Assembly (NCBI GenBank): GCA_038217285.1
Contig: JBBQPO010000052.1
Span: 1-26,503, forward strand
Reading direction: 5' to 3'
Origin: Chthonomonadales bacterium
Lineage (GTDB): Bacteria > Armatimonadota > Chthonomonadetes > Chthonomonadales > Chthonomonadaceae
DNA length: 26,503 nucleotides
Made by a program: the position numbers and the translations under genes. Below the pieces are notes generated by a model, which saw nothing but the letters and a program-made list of their open reading frames with translations, did not search any database and was not told the origin of the DNA. Shown piece after piece: positions 1,048-19,462 of the stretch (positions within the stretch are counted from its first letter, which is position 1; each line of letters starts with the position of its first letter).

Positions 1048-4000
1048 TCAGCGCTGGGGATGGCGATGCTGAAGGTGACGCAGCGTCACATAGAGTGTGG
1101 GGGCGAACAGCAGGGTGAATAGCGTAGAGAAGCTGAGCCCTCCAATGACTGCAATGGCGAGCGGCTGCTGCATTTCCGCTCCGGCCCCGATGCCGAGCGC
1201 GAGTGGGACGAGTCCGAGCAGCGCGGTCAGCGTGGTCATGAGGATCGGTCGCAGGCGGACGCGTCCGGCGTGGACCACGGCCTCCTCCACCGTGCTCCCC
1301 TCTTCTTCCATCTTCTGGGCCTGATCCAGCAGCAGAATACCGTTCTTGACTACGATACCCGCCAGCATCACCCCGCCCATAAGGGACGAGACGTTGAGCG
1401 GCGTGCCTGTGATATAGAGCCCGAACGTGACGCCGAAGAGCGAGAGCGGCATGATGAGCAGGATCACCGTAGGAGCCGTGAAGGCGCGGAACTGGAACAT
1501 CATGACGCTGTAGACGAGCACGATGGCGAGACCAAGCACCACGGCGATATTGCGAAAAGACTCGTTCTGGCTTTCGAACTGGCCGCCAAAGACGGGGGAG
1601 ACTCCGGCCGGCATCTGCGTATGCTTGACCATCGTCTGGACATCCCGCATCACGCTGCCGAGGTCGCGCCCGGAGAGGCGAGCCGTGACCGACACCACAC
1701 GCCGCTGATCTTCACGATGGATCTCCGTTGTGCCGGGCACACTCTCGATCCGCGCCACCGCCGAGAGCGGCAGCGCGAAGCCGTTGGGGGAGCGTAGAGG
1801 CAGTGTCTCGATCTGGGCGAGTTCATTTCGGTACGCGGCAGGATAGCGGACGCGAACACCGATCTGCCGTTCGCCTTGAAGAAGTTGCGTGACGACATCC
1901 CCGAAGAGCGCGGCGTTGGTCTGATCGGCCACCATGTCCGGCGTCATTCCGGCGCGTCCCGCTCGGAGGGGATCGACCTGTATGACCAGTTCCGGCCCGG
2001 CTTCGATCACGCCCGACTTGCTGTCCGCCGTCCCTTTGATTTTATCGAGTTTCTCCTTGAGTCCCTTCGCCAGCTCCTCGACCTGCTGCCGATTCTCCCC
2101 GAACAGTTTGATCTCGACCGGGTCGGTCGCGCCGGCAAGGTCACCGATCATATCCTGGAGAATCTGGGAAAAATCGACATCCACGCCCGGAGCGTCGTCC
2201 GCGATCCGCTTCCGCACATCGGCGATGACCTCCTCGATGCCGCGCTTGCGGTCCGGCTTGAGGATCACCGCGAAGTCGCCCCGGTTCGGCTCTGTGATCG
2301 CGAAGCCAAGTTCCGTGCCGGTACGCCGCGAGTAGCCTGTCACTTCCGGCGTCTCTTTCAGGACGTTCTCGATCTTGCGGAGCAAACGGTCGCTTTCGGT
2401 GAGCGTCGTACCGGGTGGCGTCAGATAGTCGAGAATGAACGCCCCTTCGTCCATCGTGGGCATGAAGCCGGTCTTGAGATTCGAACCGAACCAGAACGTC
2501 AGGCCAAGGATGGCGAGCACGGCCGGAACCATGATCCAACGCGCCCGCAGGCTGCGGCGCAGCACCCATTCATAGAGATGGAGGAACTTTTCGAACAGCC
2601 GTCCATGCTCTTTCTGACCGGGCTTGATCTGCAGGAACGCCGCGCAGAGGCTCGGACTGACAAGCAGCGCCAGCACCAGCGAGACTATGAGCGCGATGCA
2701 GAGCGTGACGGCCAGAGCGGTGAAGAAGGCCCCGGCGACGCCGGACAGCAGGACGAGCGGCATAAAGACCACGACCGTCGTCAGGGTGGACGAGATCATA
2801 GGGGCGGCGATCTCATGGGCCGCGCGCTGCACGGCGGCGATGCGCGTCTCTCCTTCCGAGAGGTGTCGGAATACGTTCTCAACGACGACGATGGCGTCGT
2901 CAATGACCAGGCCGATACCGATGGCGAGAGCGCCCAGGGTCATCAGGTTCAGCGACATGCCGGCCAGACGCATCAGCAGAAAGGTGATCAGCACCGTGGC
3001 GGGAATAATGACGGCGGTGACGAGCGTGGCCCGCAGATTGCCGAGAAACAGCATCAGCACGACCACCGCCAATGCGGCTCCGATAAAGACGGCATCCCGC
3101 ACGCTGCCGACCGCCTCCCCGACCAGCACGGACTGGTCGTAGAAGACGCCGATCTCAGTGCCGGGCGGCAGAGTCTTGCGGATCGCGCTTACTTCGGACA
3201 TGACCGCCGCGACGACCGCCACCGTATTGGCGTCGGGCTGGCGCAGGATATTGATCAGCACCGACTCCGCGCCGTCCGCCGTCACGACCGTCGTGTTATC
3301 CTGGGTAGAAGACCGAATCGTCGCTATCTGACGCAGGAAGGTCGGAACGCCGTTATGCTGCATCACGACCACATCGCCTAAGCGCTGCGGATCGGTCTTC
3401 TCGCCGGAGACCACGACCGAATAGGTCTGGAACTGCCTGTCCAGACGGCCGACCGCCCGAACGACGTTGGACTGCGTGAGCGCCTGTTCGACATCGGTTA
3501 GCGAGAGGTGATAGGCGACCAACTGCTGCGGGATGATCTCGACAGCGATCTCCGGCACGCGACCGCCCTGCACGATAGTGCGGGCGACCCCGGAGGCCCG
3601 CGCCAGACGCGGTCGGATCGTATAGGTCGCCAGCGTCCAGAGCTGGGACTGCGACAGGGTTTTCGAGTGCAGCGACAGGCCCAGGATCGGGAACACAGTG
3701 GCGTTCATGCGCTCTACGCTGACACGCGCATCCATCGGCAACAGCGGACGGACTTCGTCCACTTTCGCAGTCACCAACTGCAGCGCGGAGGCGATGTCGA
3801 CTCCCCAGTCGAAGTCGATATCCACTTCGGTCGCGCCGCGCTCGGTGAGGGAGCGCACCTTATGCACGCCGGGGACGGTGGCGACCGCCTCTTCCAGTCG
3901 CCGCGTGATACTGGCTTCAACCATACGGGACGGCCTGTCCCCAGCCTCTGCGATGACTTTGATCCGTGGAAACGTCACGTCGGGCAGAATAGCGACCGGG

Positions 4001-4095
4001 AACGAGGTCAGCATGATTCCACCGATGACACAGAGCACCACGGTGACAAACAGCACGGCCTTGAGGTGGTCCGTCGCGAATCGGCTCAGGTTCAT
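1048..4095 (-). CDS. RND efflux transporter permease subunit (AcrB/CusA superfamily)
   Basis: 1015 aa with RND topology; motifs GLVIDDAIVVVEN, VVKNGILL, RLRPILMT, QPLAIAVIGGL. Confidence 0.95.
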   Translation of the reverse strand: MNLSRFATDHLKAVLFVTVVLCVIGGIMLTSFPVAILPDVTFPRIKVIAEAGDRPSRMVEASITRRLEEAVATVPGVHKVRSLTERGATEVDIDFDWGVDIASALQLVTAKVDEVRPLLPMDARVSVERMNATVFPILGLSLHSKTLSQSQLWTLATYTIRPRLARASGVARTIVQGGRVPEIAVEIIPQQLVAYHLSLTDVEQALTQSNVVRAVGRLDRQFQTYSVVVSGEKTDPQRLGDVVVMQHNGVPTFLRQIATIRSSTQDNTTVVTADGAESVLINILRQPDANTVAVVAAVMSEVSAIRKTLPPGTEIGVFYDQSVLVGEAVGSVRDAVFIGAALAVVVLMLFLGNLRATLVTAVIIPATVLITFLLMRLAGMSLNLMTLGALAIGIGLVIDDAIVVVENVFRHLSEGETRIAAVQRAAHEIAAPMISSTLTTVVVFMPLVLLSGVAGAFFTALAVTLCIALIVSLVLALLVSPSLCAAFLQIKPGQKEHGRLFEKFLHLYEWVLRRSLRARWIMVPAVLAILGLTFWFGSNLKTGFMPTMDEGAFILDYLTPPGTTLTESDRLLRKIENVLKETPEVTGYSRRTGTELGFAITEPNRGDFAVILKPDRKRGIEEVIADVRKRIADDAPGVDVDFSQILQDMIGDLAGATDPVEIKLFGENRQQVEELAKGLKEKLDKIKGTADSKSGVIEAGPELVIQVDPLRAGRAGMTPDMVADQTNAALFGDVVTQLLQGERQIGVRVRYPAAYRNELAQIETLPLRSPNGFALPLSAVARIESVPGTTEIHREDQRRVVSVTARLSGRDLGSVMRDVQTMVKHTQMPAGVSPVFGGQFESQNESFRNIAVVLGLAIVLVYSVMMFQFRAFTAPTVILLIMPLSLFGVTFGLYITGTPLNVSSLMGGVMLAGIVVKNGILLLDQAQKMEEEGSTVEEAVVHAGRVRLRPILMTTLTALLGLVPLALGIGAGAEMQQPLAIAVIGGLSFSTLFTLLFAPTLYVTLRHLQHRHPQR

Positions 4096-5675
4096 TCTTT
4101 CCCTGCGCCCTTCTTTTCCGCCTCTTTGACTTTGGCCCCGTCCGTGAGTTCATAACCCCCGAGGTTGACGATGCGGGCGTCCGCCGTCAGCCCTTCGGTG
4201 ATGGCAACGAAGCCGTTGCGTTCCGGGCCAACCGTCACTTCTTTCTGGTGCGCGACATCGTCCTTGCCGACCACAAACACGACCGACTTGCCGTCATGGG
4301 CAAGAATGGCCTGCTTCGGCACGACGATCGCGTGCGGATCGGTATGCAGGACGACCTCCGCGAGGGCATAGCCGCCGACGCGCAGGGCGTCTCCCGCGTT
4401 GTAGACTGCGATACGCACGGCAAGGAGGTTGGTCTGTGGATCGACCTGGCCGACACTGAGCACACTGCCGGTGAAGGTCTTGCCGGGCACATCGGGGGTG
4501 GTGATACGAGCGGCCATGCCAGCGCGGAGCTTCATCCCGTCCGCCGCGCTCAGGTTGGCGATAAGGTTCAGACTGCGCCCGTCGGAGATCTCGACAATAG
4601 GATTGGTCACATCCGCCATATCGCCGGGATTCAGGTTTCGGCGGGTGACGACGCCGGACAGAGGGGCATGCACTTCGGCGTAGTTCGCGCTGGCCTGCGC
4701 GGCGGTGAAGTCGGCCTCTTTTTGCGCTACCGTCTGCCGAACGGCGAGGGCATCCTGCCGCTTCACGGCGACCTGGCCGATGGTCTCCCGCGCCTGTTTC
4801 AGCGCCCCTTCGGCCTGCAGAACTTTGCCATCACCCGTCTTCTGCGCCTGCCGCAGCAGCTCCTGGGCGCCATCGACGCGCAGTTGCGCGGCCTGCAGAT
4901 CTTCCCGGCGTGCGCCAGCGCGAACCAGCTCGCTCTGCTGTTTCGCGCTCTCCAGGGTGGAGTTGGCGACATCGAAGGCTGTCTGCGCGTCGTCGACCCG
5001 GCTTTTCGCCGCGATGCCGATACTGAGCAGCTTCTGAGAGCGTTGCAGTTCGAGTTCGGCCCGGTCGCGGGTCGCCTGCGCCTGCCGCACCGCCTGATCC
5101 GCCTGCGCAATCTCCTGCGGACGCGCGCCAGCCTGCGTCTTGCGGAGGTCGGTCTGAGCGGCCAGCAGTGCGTTCTGCGCCTGTTTGATGCCGTTGTCGC
5201 GATCCAGGCGCGCCGACTCCAGGGCCAGCAGCGCCACCTTCACGACGTTGCCCTGATCGGTCGCGGCGGCGCGCGCCGCCATGTCCGCTTCTCGCGCCTG
5301 TTCCTGTGCGACGCGCAGAGCCGCCCCGGCGCTTCGAGCCTGCGACTGCTGCGGGCGGTTATCGACGGTGGCGATAACCTGCCCTGCCGTCACACGGTCG
5401 CCCTCCCGCACCCGAACGGTGACGAGACGCCCCGGCGTCGAAGGCGCCACTCGGGCCACAGCTCCCTGGCCGGGGGCCAGCGTTCCCTGCGCCGCGATCA
5501 CGGTTTCCATCGAGCGCACGGTCGCCGAGGCGAACTCCACGGCGGTCGGCTCCGCGCTCGCCGCATCGGCGGGTGCATCCGCTGCCGCTTCCGGTGCCTT
5601 GTGCCTGCATCCGCTCAACAGCAACACCAGCACGAGACAGATCGCCGGCACTCGGTAATTTTTCGGGTTTCGCAA
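4092..5675 (-). CDS. RND efflux periplasmic adaptor (MFP), lipoprotein with long alpha-helical hairpin
   Basis: Lipobox LLLSGC; GRLVTVRVREGDRVTAGQVIA and VHAPLSGVV lipoyl halves; VDPQT and VVPKQAI motifs; ATGA overlap with the permease gene. Confidence 0.92.
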   Translation of the reverse strand: MRNPKNYRVPAICLVLVLLLSGCRHKAPEAAADAPADAASAEPTAVEFASATVRSMETVIAAQGTLAPGQGAVARVAPSTPGRLVTVRVREGDRVTAGQVIATVDNRPQQSQARSAGAALRVAQEQAREADMAARAAATDQGNVVKVALLALESARLDRDNGIKQAQNALLAAQTDLRKTQAGARPQEIAQADQAVRQAQATRDRAELELQRSQKLLSIGIAAKSRVDDAQTAFDVANSTLESAKQQSELVRAGARREDLQAAQLRVDGAQELLRQAQKTGDGKVLQAEGALKQARETIGQVAVKRQDALAVRQTVAQKEADFTAAQASANYAEVHAPLSGVVTRRNLNPGDMADVTNPIVEISDGRSLNLIANLSAADGMKLRAGMAARITTPDVPGKTFTGSVLSVGQVDPQTNLLAVRIAVYNAGDALRVGGYALAEVVLHTDPHAIVVPKQAILAHDGKSVVFVVGKDDVAHQKEVTVGPERNGFVAITEGLTADARIVNLGGYELTDGAKVKEAEKKGAGKE

Positions 5676-5713
5676 CGTCGCAGACTTCCTTCCGTTTCAC
5701 TGTCTCCATCTTC

Positions 5714-5757
5714 ATTATAACCAGACTCCCTGAGAACAGGTTGAGAAGCCTGTGAGA
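5714..5757 (-). promoter_or_regulatory. -10 box plus three TCTCA direct repeats at 11-bp period; candidate OmpR-family regulator binding site
   Basis: Plus strand TGAGA at 5731, 5742 and 5753; minus strand TATAAT at 5719-5714; no consensus -35. Confidence 0.7.
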
Positions 5758-5762
5758 GTTTT

Positions 5763-7106
5763 CTAAGGGAGAGAAGAGGCGAATGTCACCAGTACGCGCA
5801 CCCCGTCTTCGCTCTGATCCAGGGCGATTTGCCAGCCGTTAGCGGTGGCAATGGCCCGACAGATGGCGAGGCCAAGACCGTTGCCGCCGGTATCCGAGGT
5901 GCGCGCCTCGTCCGGGCGATAGAAAGGCTCGAACAGCGCCGTCGTGTCGAGGCGAGGCTGCGCAGGAAAGGCGTTGAAAAGCTCCAGGCAGGGCACGTCA
6001 CTGGGTGAGAGCAGACGGACGGTGATGCCCCCGCCAGCCGTGGCGTACTTGAGAGCGTTTTCGATCAGATTGCGAATCAGCATCTCCGCGTGCTGGGGGA
6101 ACGCCGCCACCTCGAACCCAAGCTTCAATTCCGAGGAGACGTGCAGATGACGACGGTCGATAAGCGGCTGAAACTGGGTTAGGATGCGCTCCGAAATCTC
6201 GGCAAGATCGACGGGCTCGCGGGGCAGACTGTCGGGGGTGGGTCGATCCAACTGGTTCAGGAGCAGCAGTCCCTGCACCAGCGCAGAAAGGCGCTGCGTT
6301 TGACGCGAGGCCTCTGCTGTCGCCGTTTTGTACTCGTCGCGGCTGCGTTCGCGGCTCAGAGCCACTTCCAGATGCCCGGAGAGGGCCTGCAATGGGGTGC
6401 GAAGCTCATGCGAGGCGGCCGCATAGAAACGTCCTCTCGCTTCGGCGGTCTTGCCGACACTGGTCAACAGCGCATTCAAGGTGGCGACGAGTTCGACCAC
6501 TTCGGCGTCCTGTGAGGGAGCCAGCAGGCGCTGATGCAGACTGTCGGTCACCGCTGCGCCCCGTGCCTGGTGCGAGAGCGAGTGGATCGGGGAGAGCGTC
6601 CGGCCCACGAGCCACCAGGCTCCGAACGCCGAGGCCAGCACAACACAGAGGCTCAGCACCAGCAGCACCACCGCCTCTCGTTTCAAGATCAGCTCCGATT
6701 TGCGCCAGTAGGTGCCGATCACAATGGTTTTCGCGCGGTAAGCCAGAGACCTGGTGCGCCAGCCGTCCTTTCGCCGATGCGGCCAGGAGGGCGCAGCGCT
6801 CTGCGATTTTCGGAGCACGTTGCCCTGCGCGTCCACCAGCAGCAGGGCGAGGCCTTCCATTTTCAGGCTATCGCCATTCTCTGCCAGAAAATCGTTGAAA
6901 CCGTGGCCACTCGTGATGTCCGCCAGTTCGTTTCTTATCCGCCGCGCCGCCGTATCCAATGTCGTCTCTGCAGATTGTACGGCCGTGTAGTGCAGGTAGA
7001 AAAGGAGTCCGCCTGCGATCAGGGCCATCAGGGCAGCGGTCTGCAGCGCAAAGGCGAGCGTCATGCGGGCGCGAATGGAGCCGTGCGCAGGCTTTTCAGA
7101 CGCCAT
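5763..7106 (-). CDS. Membrane sensor histidine kinase (2 TM, HAMP, HisKA, HATPase)
   Basis: H-box AASHELRTPL, N-box NLIENALKY, FEPFYR, G2 GGNGLGLAI; overlaps the response regulator gene. Confidence 0.93.
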   Translation of the reverse strand: MASEKPAHGSIRARMTLAFALQTAALMALIAGGLLFYLHYTAVQSAETTLDTAARRIRNELADITSGHGFNDFLAENGDSLKMEGLALLLVDAQGNVLRKSQSAAPSWPHRRKDGWRTRSLAYRAKTIVIGTYWRKSELILKREAVVLLVLSLCVVLASAFGAWWLVGRTLSPIHSLSHQARGAAVTDSLHQRLLAPSQDAEVVELVATLNALLTSVGKTAEARGRFYAAASHELRTPLQALSGHLEVALSRERSRDEYKTATAEASRQTQRLSALVQGLLLLNQLDRPTPDSLPREPVDLAEISERILTQFQPLIDRRHLHVSSELKLGFEVAAFPQHAEMLIRNLIENALKYATAGGGITVRLLSPSDVPCLELFNAFPAQPRLDTTALFEPFYRPDEARTSDTGGNGLGLAICRAIATANGWQIALDQSEDGVRVLVTFASSLP

Positions 7107-7773
7107 CTTCCACTCCCAGTCGGAACCCGACTCCGCGCACCGTATGGATGAGAGTCGGCGTCTGCCCTCTATCTATTTTGCCGCGCAGGTAGCTGATATA
7201 GACGTCGAGCACATTGTCACTGCCGCCGAAATCGTACTGCCAGACATGTTCGAGAATCATCGAACGCGTCAGCACCCTATCGACGTTCCGCATCAGATAC
7301 TCCAGCAGCGCGTATTCGGTAGCGGACAGAGAGACCGTTTTCCCGGCGCGAATGGCACGTCGTGAAGCCGGGTCGAGCGTCAGGTCAGCCACGCGCAGTA
7401 CCGTCGGCGCACTCACGGCGCGGCGCAGCAGCGCTCGGGCCCGCGCGAGCAGTTCCGCCAGTTGAAACGGCTTGACGATATAGTCGTCCGCGCCGCTATC
7501 CAGCCCGTCCACACGGTCCTGCAGGGTGTCTTTCGCGGTGATAATCAGAATCGGCGTCGAGATGTTGGCGCTGCGCAGGCGGCGGCAGACCTCCAGACCG
7601 TTCATTCCCGGCAGCATCACATCGAGCAGAATGAGATCGTAGCCGAGAGATCGGGCCCGCTCCAGCCCTGTCAGGCCGTCCGCCACACTCTCGACCGCAT
7701 ACCCGGCTTCGCTCAGCGCCTGCCCCAGAAATCGCGCCACGCTCTCATCGTCTTCGACGACCAGTACATTCAT
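7096..7773 (-). CDS. OmpR/PhoB family DNA-binding response regulator (CusR/CzcR/MprA-like)
   Basis: VLVVEDD, LILLDVMLP, GADDYIVKPF, NVLDVYISYLR, IHTVRGVGF. Confidence 0.95.
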   Translation of the reverse strand: MNVLVVEDDESVARFLGQALSEAGYAVESVADGLTGLERARSLGYDLILLDVMLPGMNGLEVCRRLRSANISTPILIITAKDTLQDRVDGLDSGADDYIVKPFQLAELLARARALLRRAVSAPTVLRVADLTLDPASRRAIRAGKTVSLSATEYALLEYLMRNVDRVLTRSMILEHVWQYDFGGSDNVLDVYISYLRGKIDRGQTPTLIHTVRGVGFRLGVEDGV

Positions 7774-11118: not shown

Positions 11119-11161
11119 ACTTCCTCCGGTCCCCTCCTTGCGAAGGAGGGGTTGGGGAGGT
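11119..11161. repeat. REP-like palindrome
   Basis: CCCCTCCTT-GCG-AAGGAGGGG (11131-11151) flanked by ACTTCCTCC...GGGGAGGT; no U-tract; single copy in the window. Confidence 0.5.
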
Positions 11162-13320
11162 CATTCGACGGTGAGGGTGTCCAGGTAGGCGCTGAAGTCG
11201 CGGAGGGCGGTTGCGGCCTGGGCGCGCAGGCGAACGGCTTCCTGGCGCAGTATGTCGATTTTGCTCTCCTGCGTGTCCAGTTCTCCGACGTAGCGTTTGT
11301 AGAGCGCGGAGTCCTGGGCCAGGGCCATCATGTTTTTGCGGATACGATCCTGGTCCGCGCCGATCGCCTGAAGGTCGGATTCACGGGCGGCGGCTTCCAT
11401 CTGTAGCTCTTCGACATGCCGGCGGCGGGTGAGGATCTCCTGCAGCGCCGCCAGAAGTTTGGGCGAAATCTCCTTACTTTTGGCGTAGCTTGCCAGTCGG
11501 CCCCTATCCCCGTCGAGTAGAGCCAGAGTTTCGGTCAGGGGGCGCTCCAGCACGACTTTCAGTGTCTCGGCCTTGCCGGGAGCGAGAGCGACCGCGAAGC
11601 GATAGAGCGCGGGAGTGCGCTCGGCAGGCTTGGCAGGCTGCACCAGGGTATAGGCGGCGTTGAAGGGATGCTCGATCAGCACATTGCGGGGCGTCGTCGC
11701 CTTCGATTTCAGGGTGTAGACGGTTTCGACTCGTTCCCGCCTCGCGATTACCAGGAGACGGCGCTTCAGGCTCAGGCCGGTGTCGATAATGGTGGTTTTG
11801 GGCGTCTGTCGCTCCCCTTCTACGGCCAGATCGACCGCGTAGGAGAGCAGGCGGGTGTCCCCGGGCGGAATATCCTCCATCCGGGCGTCCCCCGCGTAGA
11901 CACCGGCGTCGAAGAGGGTAACCGGGCCTCCTTTCAGGTGCAGGGCCGTGGTGTTATGCAGACGCAGAGCATTCAAAGGATATTTGGCGTCGGAGTCGGC
12001 GTTGTAGAGGGAGACCTTTTCCGCCTCGACATCCTGCGTCACGACGGGAATCAGCGCGGCCTGCTGGCGCGGGAGATTCACCGGAGTGCTGATCTTGTAC
12101 TCAAACAGCTCTCCTGCTTTCTGGCCCTCCGCCTGCGCCTTCACGGATTCGCGCAGATAGTCGACGGCAGCGCCCGACTCCGCCGCTGTGGTATCTACGG
12201 TGGGACCCGCCTCTCCTTTGTCTCCTGCAGCCCCGTTGCTGCGCCCGAACGACGCTCCCCCGCGTCCGCGCCCGCCTATGCCCCCTCCGCCGAAGCCGCC
12301 TCCAGTTCCCCCTCCGCCAAAGCCGCCTCCAGCGCCGCCTCCTGGATAGCCGCCTCCGCCAAAGCCGCTGGCCGGTCCGTTCGGGCCGAGCAGACTGCCG
12401 TCGTGGGTCTGCGGATAGGGCGAAGCGACGATGTCTGGCCCCACAACCGGGCGCGGTATATAGAGAGGCTGATAGAGATCCTGAATGAACGAAACAGGGC
12501 GACCCGATACCAGCGAAAGCCGTACATTTTGCCAGTCGTCGTCGGAGGTGTTCTCGACCATCGCCCACCCCTGCAGATAGGGCTTGCCGGGTTTGTCGGG
12601 GTTCGTGCCGCCGATCAGCAGACGATAGCTCATCTTCCAGAGCGGCGCTTCCGTGACATAACCGACGCGCACGTCCCGCTTGCCCTGCCCGGCGAAGTGC
12701 AGGGTCACCTGCCGCCGCTGTTCGTCCGAGCGCGTGGCGAGAGTGGCCAGTGCATCGTGAAACTCTTTGTTTAGCTGCGCATCCAGCAGGCGCACGGTGG
12801 TATCGGTATCGAGGCGGACGCTCATCAGCCCTGTTTCACCGAGCAGGTTCAGGATCGCGACGGTCGTGGGTTTGCCATCGACGCCCAGCACCTGGCGCGA
12901 CTCTACCCCGACGATCTGTCCGGTCAGGGCGGGCCGATTCGCCGCCTCGACCGTGACCCGTGCGCCGCGCAGTCGGTTCAGGATATCCTGCTGGCTCAGG
13001 TTCTGCGTCACATCGATGGCGAAGGACTGCAGCGTGTGGCTGATGGGATCGTGGGCGGCGTAGGTCGCGGGCTGCACCTGTCCCTGGCGATCGATGAGCA
13101 CCATCGACTTGAGGATGTCGTTGATCTGCGGGGCGCGGAAGAGCAGCGGCACGGTCGCATCGCCATCGACGACCCCGCCGCGCTCGGTATAGGAGACGCC
13201 GCTGGTAAAGAGCGTGATCCGCCGCACTGGCAGCGTGCTGGAGGGCGCGAGAGGAGCCTGTGCCAGCGCCGGAGCCGCCACGCACATCGCCGCAAATATC
13301 GAGAGTCTCTTTTTCAACAT
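11161..13320 (-). CDS. DUF4139-like secreted protein with central Gly-rich insert
   Basis: Signal peptide ([21 protein letters not shown]); [62 protein letters not shown] motifs typical of this family; C-terminal coiled coil. Confidence 0.8.
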
Positions 13321-13523: not shown

Positions 13524-13552
13524 TTGACGTAAATCCGGAAAGACGCTATAAT
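13524..13552 (+). promoter_or_regulatory. Sigma70 promoter of the ATPase-HK-RR operon
   Basis: TTGACG (13524-13529), 17 bp spacer, TATAAT (13547-13552); AT-rich tract upstream; GGAG RBS at 13572-13575. Confidence 0.8.
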
Positions 13553-13582: not shown

Positions 13583-15166
13583 GTGTTGAGAGATCCAGCC
13601 TGGTTTGAACGGCTCTGGAATAATGCAAAGAACGAGACCGTCCCCAATCCCGAAGGATCCAGTGGCGCTCTCATGCATGCGTTTGCCTCTGCTCTCGATG
13701 CCGACATCGTGGAGTACTCCCGTGAGGGCGAGGCCGCCATCTTCTTACTTGAACTGGGGGCATTGCCGTTCAAGGGTATGGGCCTCAACGTCGTCCTCGT
13801 TACCCACGCGCCTTCCGATGATGCCGATTCCGCCCGGATCGCGACCCTTCTCGCCGATTATCGCGAGGCCGTTCGGTCCATAGGACTGTGCATCCACGTC
13901 GTTCTCCAATCGGAGGAACCCGTCCGCAATCCGTACGTCCCCTCCTCGACCGACATCATCTACATGGCGCACGCGGATTTGGAGAGAATCTTTACGTCGC
14001 GCTTCCCCACCGGCGCGCTCTTTAACGTCATCAAGCGTTACATGCAACTGGAGCGCCTCAATCCATTCAATACGACGGAGGTCGCCCGGGGTTCCATGTT
14101 CGCAGGGCGCAAAAAAGAAGTGGAACAGCTTGTCAATGACCAATCGACGCACTTTCTGGTCATGGGCGCCCGACTTATCGGCAAGACGTCACTCATGCTC
14201 CGGGCGCGAGATCTCCTCTGCGCGGATAGAGAGGTGCGATCACGGGTATTCTATTTCGACTGTTCCACCTGGGGCGGCTATAAAGACTGTGTCGTCCGAC
14301 TGATTTCAAGGCTGGAACCTAAACGCGAGCGGCGCGCAGACATCAGTCTGCGCGAAGTGACGTTCATGCTCAGGCGTCTGAGCCATGACGGCAGGCGCCC
14401 TCTGCTGCTATTCTTCGACGAGTGCGATGGCCTGACAGTACGAGATTCGAGAACCGACTGGACCTTCATGCGACTCCTGGAGGAGGCCAGCGTCAGCCAA
14501 TGGGTTCGCCTGGTATTCGCCGGCTTCCGCGATGTGCAGGCGCTCCGGCAGAACTGGGGAGGCATCGTCGATTCACCGTTTCTCGGCGGGCTAAAAATGC
14601 TCAGCCTTGGCCCGCTTTCCACGGAGGAATCCGCGCGCCTGCTCTGTGATCCGTTGGTGGCCGCGGATATCGATATTCGGGATCAGCCCCTGGTCATCGA
14701 GCGCGTGTTGGCGCACTCGGCAGGCCAGCCGTTTATCCTCCAGTTCTACGGCGAACATCTCTACCGAATCGCCTCCGAACGTGACAGGCGGGAGCTGACG
14801 CTGATGGACGTGCAGAGCATCGAAGAAGGCGACGATTTGAGCGGGTTCCTGATGAACCACTTCATCTGGAACACCCAGCATGGCGCCTATACGGCAAGCG
14901 ACGAGCGCGCGTGCGTGCTCGCTTATGCGGGCCTGGCAGGTACCGAACGGTGGAGTCAGCAGGATTTCGAGACGCACTGTTCCGATCACGGTTATCCGCT
15001 GGATATGACGCAGGTGACCACAGCCCTTCAGAATCTCGTGCATGCGCAGATACTCAGCGTGGCCAGCCGCAAGTATGGTCTGGCATTCCCCCTGTTGCGC
15101 GATATACTCAACGATGCCTACCCCGATCTTGACGGCGCGCTCCGGCGGCTTCGGGAGGTAAAGTAG
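13583..15166 (+). CDS. STAND-like P-loop ATPase with uncharacterised N-terminal domain and C-terminal winged helix
   Basis: NPF...MFAGRKKEV entry motif; Walker A GARLIGKT (14165-14188); Walker B LLLFFDE (14402-14422); SAGQPFILQ GxP motif; C-terminal ALQNLVHAQIL...YGLAFPLL wHTH-like end. Confidence 0.88.
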   Translation: MLRDPAWFERLWNNAKNETVPNPEGSSGALMHAFASALDADIVEYSREGEAAIFLLELGALPFKGMGLNVVLVTHAPSDDADSARIATLLADYREAVRSIGLCIHVVLQSEEPVRNPYVPSSTDIIYMAHADLERIFTSRFPTGALFNVIKRYMQLERLNPFNTTEVARGSMFAGRKKEVEQLVNDQSTHFLVMGARLIGKTSLMLRARDLLCADREVRSRVFYFDCSTWGGYKDCVVRLISRLEPKRERRADISLREVTFMLRRLSHDGRRPLLLFFDECDGLTVRDSRTDWTFMRLLEEASVSQWVRLVFAGFRDVQALRQNWGGIVDSPFLGGLKMLSLGPLSTEESARLLCDPLVAADIDIRDQPLVIERVLAHSAGQPFILQFYGEHLYRIASERDRRELTLMDVQSIEEGDDLSGFLMNHFIWNTQHGAYTASDERACVLAYAGLAGTERWSQQDFETHCSDHGYPLDMTQVTTALQNLVHAQILSVASRKYGLAFPLLRDILNDAYPDLDGALRRLREVK

Positions 15167-18100
15167 TGCAGTTGGCATCTTACTATCGACAGATAGGCGA
15201 TAAACTGATCGTCGATCTTGTACGCGGACTGCAGGCTGGTACACATTACGCTCTGCTCGGCCCACGCCGGGGATCGAAGGCGTGGATTGTCGAGGCGTTG
15301 GTACTACGGGCGAATACCCTCGCGGCGGGTGATCGCCCGCATGTGGTCAAGTTACAGTGGCAGGCGCACCACGAAGCCAGTCATACCGGGTTCCTGAAAT
15401 ATCTCGCGGATTCTCTTGGCTTGGACGCTCCCGAGACGGCCCCCGACGCGCGCCTGTCAGGACAGGTCGCGGCGCTGATCGTGGATGCGCTCGGCATGGA
15501 TAAACGCCCCATCTGGCTGCTCATTCAGGACGTGCTTGGGTTTCCGAAATCGATTGCACGCGAACTGCTGGCCGCTCTGAACAGCCTCCACGAGCAGCTC
15601 AGCGATACAGACGAAGGCCGACGCCTCGGCGCCGTCGTCACCGGCAGTGCGGATTTCACCCCCCTGACGACCGGGCCTAACTCGCCCTATCGTCACGCGA
15701 AACTAATTCTGGTCAGCGGCCTCGACTACGAACACGCCCGTCATTTTTTCCTCGAACGCCGCGCCCGACTGCTCGGCGACCCGGCGAAGGCCGCTGTCTC
15801 CGAAGAGGTCTTCGGATGCCTGTATGAGGCCACCAATGGGAACGCCAACCTTCTGCAAGAACTTGTGATTGCACCGGCCCGGCATCCCTACTATCTCGCT
15901 CCAGACGGTTCCGCCGATGTCTACGGATCGCGGCTCGCCGCTGAGGGAATGATAGAGCACTTCATTCTGAACTTCATGCGGGACGATCAGTACAGCATCG
16001 AAATGGTGCGTGAGGCGGAGCGAGACGCCGAATCCTTCGACTTGCTTCTGCGCGTCCTCGAGGGTCCCGGTCGATTGACTTTGCCGGGCAGACCCCATGC
16101 TCTCGAAGTCTGCGGCCTCCTGGTGAAACAGACGAAAAGCGTCGTCACTTTCTCGTGTCCGATGATCGAGAATTTTGTCCGACGGACGGTCACACCCCGA
16201 CATATCGCGGATGTCTATGTGTCTCAGCGTCGGTGGGACAAAGCGGTGCCCGCGTATGAGTTCATGGCGTCCTTCCATGCATCGCTCAAGGATAGACCCG
16301 TCTCTGGACACGCGCAGTACCATCTGCGTGAATCGATCCTCGTCTGGAAAGACCAGATGATGGACGAAGCCCAGTGGGGTATAGCGCCGGTGGTTCGGCA
16401 CTTCCTGGATGGAATGCATCATCTCTTCTCCTTCGACCGCGGCGGCCTCTATGCACGGAATGGCTCGGGTTGGGTCGAGAGCGCTACGTTCGGATGTGAA
16501 CAGATGGCTCCTCCGCCGCCACAGGAGGAATCGGAAAGCGGTCCAGGTCTCACCAAATCGATCTCCGGGGATCAGCTCAGTATGATGCGCTTGATCGCCT
16601 CCTCCGGCAGCCTGCCGGAGTGGCCGGTCTGTTCTCTCTTCCTGCAGCGCGACCATGCGGGCCACGAGATCGACTCTGCCGAGCGCGCTATTCTCGACAA
16701 CTCGGTAGACCGGTTCTGTCACGCCTATAAGGCCGCAGAGGAGATCGAATACCGCCGCCGTATCGGGGAGCTCCGCGAACAGCACCTCAAGGTGATCGAG
16801 CGTGTCAATGAGGCCGTCTTGAATAAGCAGTTCGACCTCGGTCACGTCGTTCGCTGTGCGACGGATGCTCTTGTCGACGTGGCCGGCTATCGCCGTGTTC
16901 AGATCTGCCTCGTGAACGCGCGGCGAAATCGGATCCAGTCCGTGGCAAGCTGCCATAAGCCGGGCATCCTCGATTTTCGTGATCCTACAAACTATCCGCT
17001 GCGTGTGCCACGCGCGGACGTCCAGGCCTGGGTCGTCGCCAATAAGCAGATCGCCATCATCGACGAAGCCGCCGAATGGTACGGCAAAGAGTTCGACATC
17101 AATGTCTCCCAGTCGGTGGCTCTGGGCATGAAGGCTTTCACGGTGGTGCCGATGATCACAGGGGACGTGGTAATCGGCACAATCCATATCGAACGGGAGG
17201 ACAGGGAGCCTCCTGTCCAGATCGAGCAGGAGCTTTACCTGCTTCTGGCAGGGCATATCGCCGGTGTCTGCCGTCAGGCGCAGCGTCTGGAGATGCTTCA
17301 AAACGTGGTGGAAGCCTCGGATGATGAGATCCGGATCGCCGATCCGACGTTCCGCCTCGTCTATCTGAACCGTGCCGCTCATGACCGTGAACCGCACTCT
17401 CCGACAGCAGGCTGGCAAGACAAGAACGTCCGCTATGATTGGCGCAGGCACGCCTGGGCCTCCAACGGTCCTCAAAGGGGAGAGGCGCTGGAGAAGGCCC
17501 GTCTAGGCGAAACGGCCCGCTATTTTTTGACATCGGACGCCCCGACCGCGCCCCAGGCGCAAGCTCTGGACATAAGCGGTATCGTGGATTTTCGCGGTGG
17601 TCTCACGTCGCCGCTTGTGGCGGACGGCTTGATCGGATTCGTCGAGCATATCCGCGATATGACGCCGCTCTATGAAATCGTGGCGGAAATTACCGAGTGG
17701 CTGAAGGTGGATAATCTGAAAGAGGCGGCACAGACCATTGTAGAGACGGCCGTGCGCCGCGACTACGACTGGTGCCGGATCTACCTGTATCACGATCATC
17801 CGCGTGAGGGGCGCTACCTGGAGAGCTTCGCGGAGAGCGGGTTACAGGTACCGGAGAATATCGATGCCTTTCGCTCGGGAGGCATCCGGGAGTACCCTGA
17901 TAGTGACCCGCTGCCTCATGGCTGGCATGTGATCCTCGAAGCGAAGGGCCCTACGATCTATGAGATCCCCAGGAACCGGGCACCGAAGCGGAAGCAGATC
18001 GTCCGCGCACCCAATCTCGAAGGGGCTCCCCGCTTCTATACCACGGCGCGCGACTGCCAACGCAAACTCGAGAATGACAACATACGACGGTGGATAGAGG

Positions 18101-18945
18101 CCCCTTTGCTTGTCGGAGATCGTGTGGTAGGCGTCATGACGCTGCCCATGCCCAGGGCACCCCTGACCCCGAGCAAATGGGTGCTGCTGGGCCTGTTCGT
18201 CCAGTGCGCCGCGTTGACGCTTGACAGCGTGATTCGCGCCGAGGAACGAGCCACGCCGGATCGCCAGACAGCAGCAGCGATGATATGGATCTTTCATCAG
18301 TTTCGGCAGCCACTGTTCGCATGCCGCGGTTGGCTGCGTCTGCTCGGCCCCACCGACCAGGATCCCTCCCAGAATGAAACCATTAGTGCTATCAAAGAGG
18401 CGATCACAAGGATGGAACGCATTTCGGCGGACTATCTGCACTGGATACGAGAGTACGTGCCGATAATTACAGGGGGCGACATCGTCGATGCCATGAAACA
18501 GACATGCAAGCGAGCGGGTGTCTATCGCGAAAATGTGTTGCCAGAGGTGGTTTCCGACATCAATGCCTACTTTGTCTACACGGACCTCACCGAAATTCAA
18601 AGAGCGGTCGATGAGTTGATCTGGAACGCCATCAGGGCTGGTGCGACGAACATCACTGTGCGCCTGAACACGAAGTCGAATTCCAACGAAGTAACTCTGC
18701 TCGTTGAAGACAACGGCCCGGGAATACCGCAGGAAAAAAGGCAGCGTCTCTTCGAACCTGCGCCCAGTAAATCCAGCGGAGGGACGGGATTTGGGCTTGC
18801 TACCGTCAGAAAACACCTCGGCCTCCTGGAAGGATTGATCGATTTCGAAGAACGAAGTGAGGGCGGCGCATGCTTTCGTTTGCGTATTCCCCTCTCGCCG
18901 GCAGAACCCATAGGGCATCGAAAGGAGAACTCTTATGAGCAATAG
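15166..18945 (+). CDS. Cytoplasmic multidomain histidine kinase: degenerate STAND-like ATPase, GAF/PAS/GAF, HisKA, HATPase
   Basis: N-terminal GPRRGSKA (degenerate Walker A) and LLIQD (degenerate Walker B); GAF ~16830-17280 (VVPMITGDVVIGTIHIE); PAS-like (IRIADPTFRLVYLNRAA); GAF ~17710-18225 (EAPLLVGDRVVGVMTL); H-box HQFRQPL (His1044); ELIWNAIRA, VEDNGPGI, LFEP, GGTGFGLA; no TM helix seen. Confidence 0.88.
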   Translation: MQLASYYRQIGDKLIVDLVRGLQAGTHYALLGPRRGSKAWIVEALVLRANTLAAGDRPHVVKLQWQAHHEASHTGFLKYLADSLGLDAPETAPDARLSGQVAALIVDALGMDKRPIWLLIQDVLGFPKSIARELLAALNSLHEQLSDTDEGRRLGAVVTGSADFTPLTTGPNSPYRHAKLILVSGLDYEHARHFFLERRARLLGDPAKAAVSEEVFGCLYEATNGNANLLQELVIAPARHPYYLAPDGSADVYGSRLAAEGMIEHFILNFMRDDQYSIEMVREAERDAESFDLLLRVLEGPGRLTLPGRPHALEVCGLLVKQTKSVVTFSCPMIENFVRRTVTPRHIADVYVSQRRWDKAVPAYEFMASFHASLKDRPVSGHAQYHLRESILVWKDQMMDEAQWGIAPVVRHFLDGMHHLFSFDRGGLYARNGSGWVESATFGCEQMAPPPPQEESESGPGLTKSISGDQLSMMRLIASSGSLPEWPVCSLFLQRDHAGHEIDSAERAILDNSVDRFCHAYKAAEEIEYRRRIGELREQHLKVIERVNEAVLNKQFDLGHVVRCATDALVDVAGYRRVQICLVNARRNRIQSVASCHKPGILDFRDPTNYPLRVPRADVQAWVVANKQIAIIDEAAEWYGKEFDINVSQSVALGMKAFTVVPMITGDVVIGTIHIEREDREPPVQIEQELYLLLAGHIAGVCRQAQRLEMLQNVVEASDDEIRIADPTFRLVYLNRAAHDREPHSPTAGWQDKNVRYDWRRHAWASNGPQRGEALEKARLGETARYFLTSDAPTAPQAQALDISGIVDFRGGLTSPLVADGLIGFVEHIRDMTPLYEIVAEITEWLKVDNLKEAAQTIVETAVRRDYDWCRIYLYHDHPREGRYLESFAESGLQVPENIDAFRSGGIREYPDSDPLPHGWHVILEAKGPTIYEIPRNRAPKRKQIVRAPNLEGAPRFYTTARDCQRKLENDNIRRWIEAPLLVGDRVVGVMTLPMPRAPLTPSKWVLLGLFVQCAALTLDSVIRAEERATPDRQTAAAMIWIFHQFRQPLFACRGWLRLLGPTDQDPSQNETISAIKEAITRMERISADYLHWIREYVPIITGGDIVDAMKQTCKRAGVYRENVLPEVVSDINAYFVYTDLTEIQRAVDELIWNAIRAGATNITVRLNTKSNSNEVTLLVEDNGPGIPQEKRQRLFEPAPSKSSGGTGFGLATVRKHLGLLEGLIDFEERSEGGACFRLRIPLSPAEPIGHRKENSYEQ

Positions 18946-19462
18946 CCTTGGAATCCTGATCGCAGAAGATGAAGAAAACACCATAATCTACCAGACTTAC
19001 AAACGCATGGGCTTCGATGTTGTGGGTCATCAAATGCCATCTGATGCGCTCGATTGTGTCAGGGAACGACGTGGCAGCCTGGATGTCGGTATTATCGACT
19101 TATGGATGAACTGGCCGGGCCAGGGGAAGCTCGATAAGGAGGCCGGACTTGTGCTTCTGAAGAAAATCAAGTCGGAGATCGACCCTGATCTCGGTGTGGT
19201 GGTTCTCACAGGGCACGGCTCGGAGCCGGAAGAAGACTGTCGCAAAGCCGGGGCATCGGCCTTCATTCTCAAGGCGACCACAGAGACATGGGATCTGCTA
19301 GACGTGGCGGTGGCGAAAGCAGCCATCGAATCGCTCCAGAAACGGCTTACGACCCTCTCCGGGCGTCCGGCGAACCTATCGGAGAATGCGTTTCGAGATC
19401 AACTTGAGGAGCGTATGGCTCAGGCGAAAGCCTTCGCGCAAAAGCTGAATATACCGACCTGA
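18935..19462 (+). CDS. Response regulator, receiver domain with short helical C-terminal tail
   Basis: ILIAEDE, GIIDLWM (Asp55), VVVLTGHG, AFILKA; AGGAG RBS; 11-nt overlap with the kinase gene. Confidence 0.9.
   Translation: MSNSLGILIAEDEENTIIYQTYKRMGFDVVGHQMPSDALDCVRERRGSLDVGIIDLWMNWPGQGKLDKEAGLVLLKKIKSEIDPDLGVVVLTGHGSEPEEDCRKAGASAFILKATTETWDLLDVAVAKAAIESLQKRLTTLSGRPANLSENAFRDQLEERMAQAKAFAQKLNIPT

Follow-up and report, generated by a model that had tools for sequence, protein, structure and literature searches.

Why should a bacterial histidine kinase begin with what looks like a decayed ATPase, directly behind a gene for an intact one? The question is raised by contig JBBQPO010000052.1 of a Chthonomonadales bacterium (assembly GCA_038217285.1), 26,503 nucleotides (nt) that we refer to as the window. 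Three genes there, all on one strand (13583-19462), encode an ATPase (gene 1), a large histidine kinase (gene 2) and a response regulator (gene 3). A first-pass annotation of the window had read the kinase N-terminus as a catalytically dead homologue of the upstream ATPase and had proposed an active/inactive hetero-oligomer of the two. The analysis supports the homology and the loss of catalytic residues, and leads us to lean towards a system in which gene 1 gates the kinase through an apparently non-hydrolysing module of the STAND class (signal transduction ATPases having numerous domains).

The kinase N-terminus and the upstream ATPase

Pairwise BLASTP of gene 1 against gene 2 was not significant; the best high-scoring segment pair, in the Walker A region, had an E-value of 0.15, a result that would suit a chance similarity of short motifs. 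Profile comparison gave a different picture. The kinase alignment comprised 98 sequences taken from 150 listed matches and four locus proteins, where each match spanned positions <=40 to >=330 and started within 80 residues of the N-terminus, and fragments and repeat-only matches were excluded. Aligned by hhalign with seven sequences of the gene 1 family it gave a probability of 97.6% (E 2.8e-12, 301 columns), matching kinase residues 17-345 to gene 1 residues 179-516, and an 18-sequence kinase alignment gave 96.4% (E 1.3e-9, 204 columns). When the modules only were compared, with 21 gene 1 sequences, the probability was 99.1-99.3% (E 1.7e-18 to 3.1e-20, score 135-147), whereas one reversed and five column-shuffled gene 1 alignments reached 0.1-1.0% and scores of 14-21. 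We give chance similarity practically no credence, as it is refuted by the profile E-values of 1e-9 to 3e-20 over 204-304 columns and by controls scoring 14-21 against 135; moreover, independent fold predictions put both proteins beside the same PDB chains. The proposed homology to the upstream ATPase is thereby borne out (96.4-99.3% against at most 1% in the controls), and at the profile level kinase residues 1-345 are homologous to gene 1 residues about 179-516.

The order of the motifs is kept, as the first-pass annotation had it. All six motif pairs share columns in the 98-sequence comparison (Walker A, Walker B, VFAG/VVTG, DSPF/NSPY, AGQPFILQ/NGNANLLQ and YGLAFPLL/VTFSCPMI, gene 1 named first), and GPRRGSKA and LLIQD lie at the residues and bases first given for them (Table 1). 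The register sets Q121 of the kinase opposite the Walker B Asp of gene 1 (D279), D122 opposite its catalytic Glu (E280) and L124 opposite D282, and is also consistent with a modelled strand at residues 116-121.

This model, made with AlphaFold2 for kinase residues 1-420 from 61 aligned sequences, has a predicted local distance difference test score (pLDDT) of 94.4 and a predicted template modelling score (pTM) of 0.91. Its P-loop alpha/beta domain leads into helical domains and a winged helix, which stops at about residue 341 and is followed by paired helices; the strands lie at 27-31, 59-64, 116-121, 154-160 and 179-186, followed by helices and by a beta-hairpin with a helix at 319-341. Foldseek against the PDB returned 2qen, 2fna, CED-4, MalT, Cdc6/ORC, Apaf-1, plant resistosomes and Avs3 (E 1.5e-8 to 1e-5). 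The first two of these are the best matches that the kinase module has in common with the gene 1 model (pLDDT 89.2), for which they also rank highest, and a sequence profile of the kinase N-terminal domain finds ORC4 in the PDB at E 1.3e-6. Kinase residues 1-345 are predicted to adopt a STAND/AAA+ P-loop nucleoside triphosphatase (NTPase) fold, as first supposed; because of the modelled fold, the Foldseek matches and the ORC4 match, the case that there is no such fold here, on which the pseudo-ATPase idea would fall, can be set aside.

Gene 1, by its motifs and profile matches, is an intact STAND ATPase of the same lineage as the kinase module. Both Walker motifs are invariant in seven relatives 37-66% identical to it, besides the wider family given in Table 1. 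The Pfam nSTAND1 model (PF20703) is a marginal pass over residues 169-413 (28.4 bits vs a cut-off of 27.1), and AAA_22 also matches. Residues 1-160 (13583-14062) form a conserved alpha/beta domain modelled in the order helix, three strands, helix, strand, which we take to be reminiscent of restriction-endonuclease-like folds. In these 160 residues neither a conserved (D/E)xK nor a Pfam family match was found, and residues 1-165 had in Protein Atlas just a 0.86 lead to an unnamed cluster, below the meaningful level.

In the kinase module the catalytic site has eroded at three places. Set against the Walker A pattern GxxxxGK[ST], the window kinase replaces the Gly preceding the Lys by Ser and the Ser/Thr by Ala, and against the Walker B pattern hhhhD[DE] it has Q121 at the Asp position. 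A basic sensor-1 residue after strand 4 is a feature of competent STAND NTPases. In gene 1 such a residue, R316 (R or K across its family), follows the strand equivalent to the sensor-1 strand of the kinase, which ends in S161. Among the 98 relatives, position 39 (the Mg-binding Ser/Thr) is occupied by R in 36, S in 18, A in 17 and T in 10, with Ser/Thr in 28/98 altogether. Position 121 (the Walker B Asp) is Q in 26, S in 25, A in 20 and D in 6; position 122 (the catalytic Glu) is N in 51 and D in 29, never Glu; and position 161 (sensor 1) is E in 46 and S in 37. No kinase at the 21 sequenced loci, two of them near-duplicates (L019, L021), has Ser/Thr at 39 or Asp at 121. The erosion is real and conserved across the family, and the Walker degeneration first seen in one protein extends to its homologues.

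The P-loop itself has been kept far better. The Walker A Lys (position 38) is K in 97 of the 98, the Gly before it (position 37) is G in 89 and A in 7, with Ser in the window alone, and the first P-loop Gly (position 32) is G in 81 and A in 17; the GPR motif is kept in about 80/98. The label "catalytically dead" therefore stands for the catalytic residues at position 39, position 121 and sensor 1, but goes too far for the retained Lys and its preceding Gly. We would read it as non-hydrolysing and not as non-binding: because the Lys is near-invariant and the P-loop shape is kept, the module probably still binds phosphate or nucleotide, and because the Mg-binding Ser/Thr, the Walker B Asp/Glu and the sensor-1 Arg are lost, it would at most bind them, without turnover. 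The phosphate-binding site would then still be under selection in the kinase module.

All six relatives with Asp at 121 (P0041, P0052, P0091, P0115, P0126 and P0147) also keep K[ST]. Because of this, and because P0052, a complete GAF/HATPase kinase, matches Pfam AAA_22 with 34 bits, the ancestral state was probably an active STAND fused to the kinase. Intact-motif members of the family also attain AAA_35 (45 bits) and come close to nSTAND1.

A conserved operon and its relation to AAA_35 pairs

Genes 1-3 are one operon and encode a cytoplasmic two-component system. The TAG stop of gene 1 (15164-15166) and the GTG start of gene 2 (15166-15168) have one base in common, a GGGAGG site lies 8 nt upstream, and gene 1 is predicted from this junction to be translationally coupled to the kinase gene. 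The promoter-like site upstream of gene 1 lies within an AT-rich stretch.

Table 1. Features of genes 1-3 in the window; residue numbers refer to the protein named or to gene 2
Feature	Position	Strand	Remarks
Sigma-70-like promoter (TTGACG, 17 nt spacer, TATAAT)	13524..13552	+	11/12 consensus positions; consensus match only
Gene 1, 527-aa STAND ATPase	13583..15166	+	N-terminal alpha/beta domain of ~160 aa, then NTPase module
Gene 1 Walker A, GARLIGKT (residues 195-202)	14165..14188	+	G195, G200, K201 and T202 invariant in 21 family members
Gene 1 Walker B, LLLFFDECD (residues 274-282)	14402..14428	+	D279, E280 and D282 invariant in 21 family members
Gene 1 / gene 2 junction	15153..15168	+	GGGAGG ribosome-binding site; read from sequence
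Gene 2, 1259-aa cytoplasmic histidine kinase	15166..18945	+	Translation; Pfam GAF, HisKA, HATPase_c
Predicted inactive STAND NTPase module	15166..16200	+	Nucleotide-binding domain 1-186, helical domains 188-299, winged helix 312-341
Degenerate Walker A, GPRRGSKA (residues 32-39)	15259..15282	+	98-relative alignment
Degenerate Walker B, LLIQD (residues 118-122)	15517..15531	+	Q121 at Asp position, D122 at Glu position
Sensor-1 strand end, VVTGS (residues 157-161)	15634..15648	+	No Arg or Lys
TPR-like helical arm (residues 344-419)	16195..16422	+	Helix pairs in AlphaFold2 model; repeat proteins match residues 340-420
First GAF domain (residues about 560-700)	16843..17265	+	Pfam GAF_3 and GAF_2
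Second GAF domain (residues 851-1016)	17716..18213	+	Pfam GAF
Kinase core, HisKA 1044-1091 and HATPase_c 1140-1244	18295..18897	+	Pfam
Gene 3, 175-aa single-domain response regulator	18935..19462	+	Response_reg 32.7 bits; 11 nt overlap with gene 2 end

Behind the STAND module, which ends near residue 345 (base 16200), gene 2 has the HATPase_c and the HisKA with phospho-acceptor His of a two-component histidine kinase, HATPase_c scoring 76.6 bits and HisKA 24.3 bits, below its cut-off of 26.9. Its translation contains HQFRQPL, DNGPGIP and GTGFGLA, which we take to be the H-box, G1 and G2 boxes. Pfam, NCBIfam and PADLOC name nothing in the first 420 residues save a weak TPR_7 match in the helical arm (E 0.08), and Pfam AAA_35 (PF14516, cut-off 27 bits) gave no match there even at E 10; one relative, P0080, has 44.9 bits to this model. 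A phmmer search with residues 1-420 against 1.84 billion representatives found 168 matches at E <= 1e-3, 65 of them at <= 1e-10, most of the proteins being 1200-1300 aa long. HATPase_c is present in 7/7 relatives sampled near and far, and GAF in 6/7.

The pairing with gene 1 is widely kept. In four complete genome loci, and likewise in G309, the ATPase is followed by a protein of 1258-1378 aa whose N-terminus is degenerate in the same way, and a metagenome scan with a distant "GKR / NVD" subfamily gave 17 loci. A gene 1-family match lies upstream on the same strand in 20/21 loci (gene 1 hidden Markov model (HMM), E 1e-257 to 1.5e-8) and within 50 nt of the kinase start in 18/21; the ATPase ends -29 to +50 nt from the kinase start in 17/18 other loci, L021 being also adjacent. 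Every one of the 18 partner ATPases examined is intact (G..R.GKT and hhhDE.D), and the paired loci include a subfamily just 20-25% identical. A receiver gene follows the kinase in 9/10 further loci tested, plus L006 and L010; ATPase, kinase and response regulator are thus a conserved operon. Among 401 sampled genomes of the phylum, five (G000, G223, G303, G309 and G357) match the kinase domain strongly (E <= 2e-22), and exactly these five also have full-length ATPase matches (E <= 5.5e-90), with neither gene found singly; it should be noted that these five genomes span four families and that kin are not independent.

Some loci show peculiarities of their own. At L003:11624-15760 the kinase open reading frame (ORF) extends some 100 residues into receiver-like sequence (with a VLVVDDD-type start) before its stop, which suggests a fusion or frameshift with the downstream regulator. 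At L026:1292-4532 the ATPase ORF has a mere 399 aa and lacks its C-terminal part; the copy may have been disrupted or interrupted. The two G223 contigs that carry an unlinked kinase and ATPase are 10.8 and 66.7 kb long. By its PSCyt/PSD1 genes the genome would be of planctomycete type, and its relatives are metagenome-assembled genomes of Planctomycetota.

We rejected the idea that the kinase domain has its closest paralogue in gene 1. Run against all ORFs of at least 100 aa in the genome, an HMM of this domain gave 25-63 bits on about fifteen other proteins, and gene 1 was not among the best 25 matches listed. The better-scoring proteins are STAND NTPases of the Pfam AAA_35 family with the motifs RQxGK[ST]SL, hhhFhDEID, SPFN and GGHPYLTQ, of which genes 1 and 2 both carry diverged versions. 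Profile-profile scores were 135-162 for the kinase domain with AAA_35, 135-147 for the kinase domain with gene 1 and 69-94 for gene 1 with AAA_35. The kinase domain is accordingly about equally near to both, its relation to AAA_35 being visible at profile level alone (99.2-99.6% in hhalign), while for gene 1 the nearest of the three profiles is the kinase domain. The description of the kinase N-terminus as a homologue of gene 1 holds in the general sense, but not in that of a special copy, with AAA_35 equally near or better.

The AAA_35 NTPases come as adjacent pairs as well. Such pairs occur in the same genome at C260:2232-7678, C120:9241-15140, C156:10521-14789, C2:12476-17858 (minus strand) and C208:1-3189 (minus strand), and others in G190, G181, G061 and G339; loci with such pairs include L012, L013, L037 and L040. 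They resemble the window pair in belonging to the same STAND lineage (hhalign 95.8-99.6%) and in their layout, a shorter protein with a C-terminal NTPase followed by a longer one with an N-terminal NTPase and sensor-type domains. The upstream member has 540-790 aa, its NTPase module following Trans_reg_C and/or BTAD in 4/5 proteins scanned with Pfam, and the downstream member, of 890-1320 aa, has WD40 propellers in every case scanned with Pfam. GK[ST] is present in both members, and in Walker B some upstream ones have D-G instead of D-E. The pairs differ from that of the window in that the downstream member keeps GK[ST] and DE and carries the propellers and not a kinase, and in the DNA-binding domain of the upstream member. 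A literature search by the family names AAA_35 and nSTAND1 found no paper on such adjacent pairs. Because AAA_35 NTPases are paired in this way, we suggest that the window pair may be a derived member of an old two-gene STAND design, whose downstream member acquired a kinase and no longer has its ATP site. The weak matches of the kinase profile in G190, G181, G061, G370, G277 and G339 and on the own contigs C260, C120 and C2 were discarded because all were STAND NTPases lacking a kinase; Pfam, run on L012, C260, C120 and C2, found AAA_35 and WD40 there.

The neighbours of the operon in the window are of housekeeping type (RND efflux, YidC, an ABC transporter and PSCyt/PSD1 proteins). The stretch 1048-7773 on the minus strand holds the RND pump (AcrB-like and HlyD-like) and, beside it, a second, conventional two-component system with HisKA/HATPase_c and an OmpR-type regulator. 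Divergent from gene 1, a 719-aa ORF (11161-13320, minus strand) had no Pfam match at E 1e-4. We also considered an anti-phage defence system, and dropped this reading because genes 1 and 2 have no PADLOC match at E 0.1 and no defence neighbourhood.

How gene 1 might gate the kinase

The explanation we lean towards, though not by much, is a two-component operon in which the kinase is gated by gene 1 via its pseudo-NTPase module. The input end of the kinase is predicted to consist of an inactive STAND module in place of a conventional input domain, followed by the TPR-like arm and the two GAF domains. Gene 1 and the pseudo-NTPase module would associate through the usual STAND domain contacts, and the ATP/ADP state or oligomerisation of gene 1 would set the dimer geometry and autophosphorylation of the kinase, from which the phosphoryl group would pass to the single-domain response regulator; further inputs, from small molecules or proteins, would come in through the GAF domains and the TPR arm. 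The docking of the kinase onto gene 1 in an active/inactive hetero-oligomer, as the first-pass annotation had it, is plausible by synteny, co-occurrence and analogy. A complex prediction for gene 1 with kinase residues 1-420 scored 0.00, which we count neither for nor against it.

Several observations weigh against this explanation. The contact between gene 1 and the kinase is drawn from indirect evidence, synteny and co-occurrence. At L026 there is a 2 kb gap between the ATPase and the kinase start. In G223 the kinase (contig C192, L008) has no ATPase in the 1.6 kb upstream, the latter being on contig C113 (L009), and since the two are unlinked there, adjacency is not obligatory. The data do not support a simple recent duplication of gene 1, because the kinase domain is no closer to gene 1 than to the AAA_35 NTPases. 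Finally, loss of ATPase activity is read from residues alone, and the near-invariant Lys, together with an Asp at 122 or 124 in most relatives, leaves room for residual nucleotide chemistry.

On this last point one might suppose that the module is still an active NTPase that works through non-canonical residues, K38 with D122, or the N-V-D of the distant subfamily. The nearly invariant K38 would suit such an enzyme, as would the acidic residue found at +1 or +3 from the Walker B site in most relatives (D122 in 29/98, D124 in 50/98). We nevertheless hold it to be improbable, as three catalytic elements (the Ser/Thr after the Lys, the Walker B Asp and the sensor-1 Arg) were lost together, the window kinase has its singular Ser in the P-loop, and the six Asp-121 relatives with K[ST] suggest that the canonical set works and was lost as a unit. 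A weightier alternative, although we still think it rather unlikely, is that the pseudo-NTPase acts in cis and governs kinase activity on its own, be it as a scaffold for self-association or as a sensor of nucleotide or phosphate that does not hydrolyse, without co-assembly with gene 1; the latter would then share the pathway in another role, for example by sensing separately, by remodelling the kinase as an ATPase or by serving as the target of the regulator. Retention of the P-loop Lys and the GPR motif is as expected for a selected binding site, and the lack of linkage in G223 fits as well. The response regulator needs a protein target because it has no output domain, and gene 1 has an unexplained N-terminal domain of ~160 aa. 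What speaks against a purely cis role is that gene order and spacing are kept in 18/21 loci across very divergent subfamilies, and that the two genes co-occur exactly in 5/401 genomes. Synteny and co-occurrence argue for a tight functional unit, but do not separate direct from indirect coupling.

Gating by gene 1 through the pseudo-NTPase module may be taken one step further. Paired sensor/helper nucleotide-binding leucine-rich repeat (NLR) proteins of plants are linked STAND proteins, one of which tolerates a non-functional P-loop and carries an extra sensing or integrated domain. Tentatively, and with more doubt than belief, one could see in the window a bacterial counterpart of such a pair wired to a phosphorelay, that is, an obligate hetero-oligomer whose ATP-driven assembly switches the kinase on or off. 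The comparison is an analogy, as plant NLR pairs belong to the NB-ARC clade of STAND proteins, have cell death as output and are eukaryotic.

Related systems and what the pair may mean

Other histidine kinases are known with unusual N-termini. KdpD has a P-loop-like N-terminal domain, and SasA a KaiB-like domain that binds the KaiC ATPase. Like the window kinase, both have as input domain a nucleotide-binding-type fold or a mimic of an ATPase-complex component; unlike it, their folds are unrelated to STAND and no active paralogue of the same fold is encoded next door.

A close precedent in print is an operon of two STAND genes, one active and one eroded, for which a toroidal hetero-multimer was predicted (Kaur, Iyer, Burroughs, Aravind, eLife 2021, PMC8195603). 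As described in the relevant passages of that paper, it likewise has adjacent STAND genes, the eroded one fused to a variable functional domain. It differs in being nearer to CR-ATPases and S29/Dap3, and in having its inactive module with GT4 or HEPN effectors in a mobile conflict system, whereas the window pair is of AAA_35-like lineage, with a GAF-GAF histidine kinase and response regulator in a housekeeping neighbourhood. The conserved arginine finger cited in those passages was not found in the window proteins. Inactive STAND modules, iSTAND and iSTAND2, are also described for the MoxR-vWA ternary systems (Kaur et al., eLife 2020 PMC7159879; 2021 PMC8195603), again as a non-enzymatic component beside an active AAA+ ATPase. 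Going by the same passages, the window differs in that its partner ATPase is a STAND of the same lineage and its output phosphotransfer; neither a MoxR nor a vWA gene is among the genes of the window. In BREX, the BrxC ATPase is accompanied by BrxB, an iSTAND, and by PglW, a Ser/Thr kinase whose iSTAND is C-terminal (NAR 2026, PMC12839542). According to the parts of that article dealing with these proteins, PglW is encoded in a phage-defence locus and its iSTAND lacks the helical bundle; the window protein is a histidine kinase with a complete module, winged helix included, at its N-terminus, and the window has no BREX genes. Our literature search found no histidine kinase that carries a STAND-like or inactive STAND domain and has a partner ATPase, although the supplementary architecture lists of Kaur et al., which lay outside that search, may contain it. 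An inactive STAND beside an active ATPase is hence already in print, and its fusion to a histidine kinase with a partner of the same lineage may be undescribed.

The N-terminal family comprises at least 168 clusters at 50% identity and is a domain without a Pfam or NCBIfam model. The usual view is that ligand-binding input domains switch histidine kinases; in this family a decayed molecular-switch ATPase appears to take their place, in most loci beside its intact relative. If the stronger reading as a hetero-oligomeric switch is true, the adjacent AAA_35 pairs would make heteromeric two-gene STANDs an old and general design, in which one partner carries the output and one the sensor, and one of the two ATP sites is free to decay. 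If the modules co-assemble, the operon would offer a simple bacterial system for cooperation of inactive and active STAND/NLR-type proteins with an easy phosphotransfer readout, such cooperation between inactive and active subunits being an open question for paired plant NLRs, ORC and the iSTAND defence systems. It seems, further, that inactive STAND modules are not confined to conflict systems.

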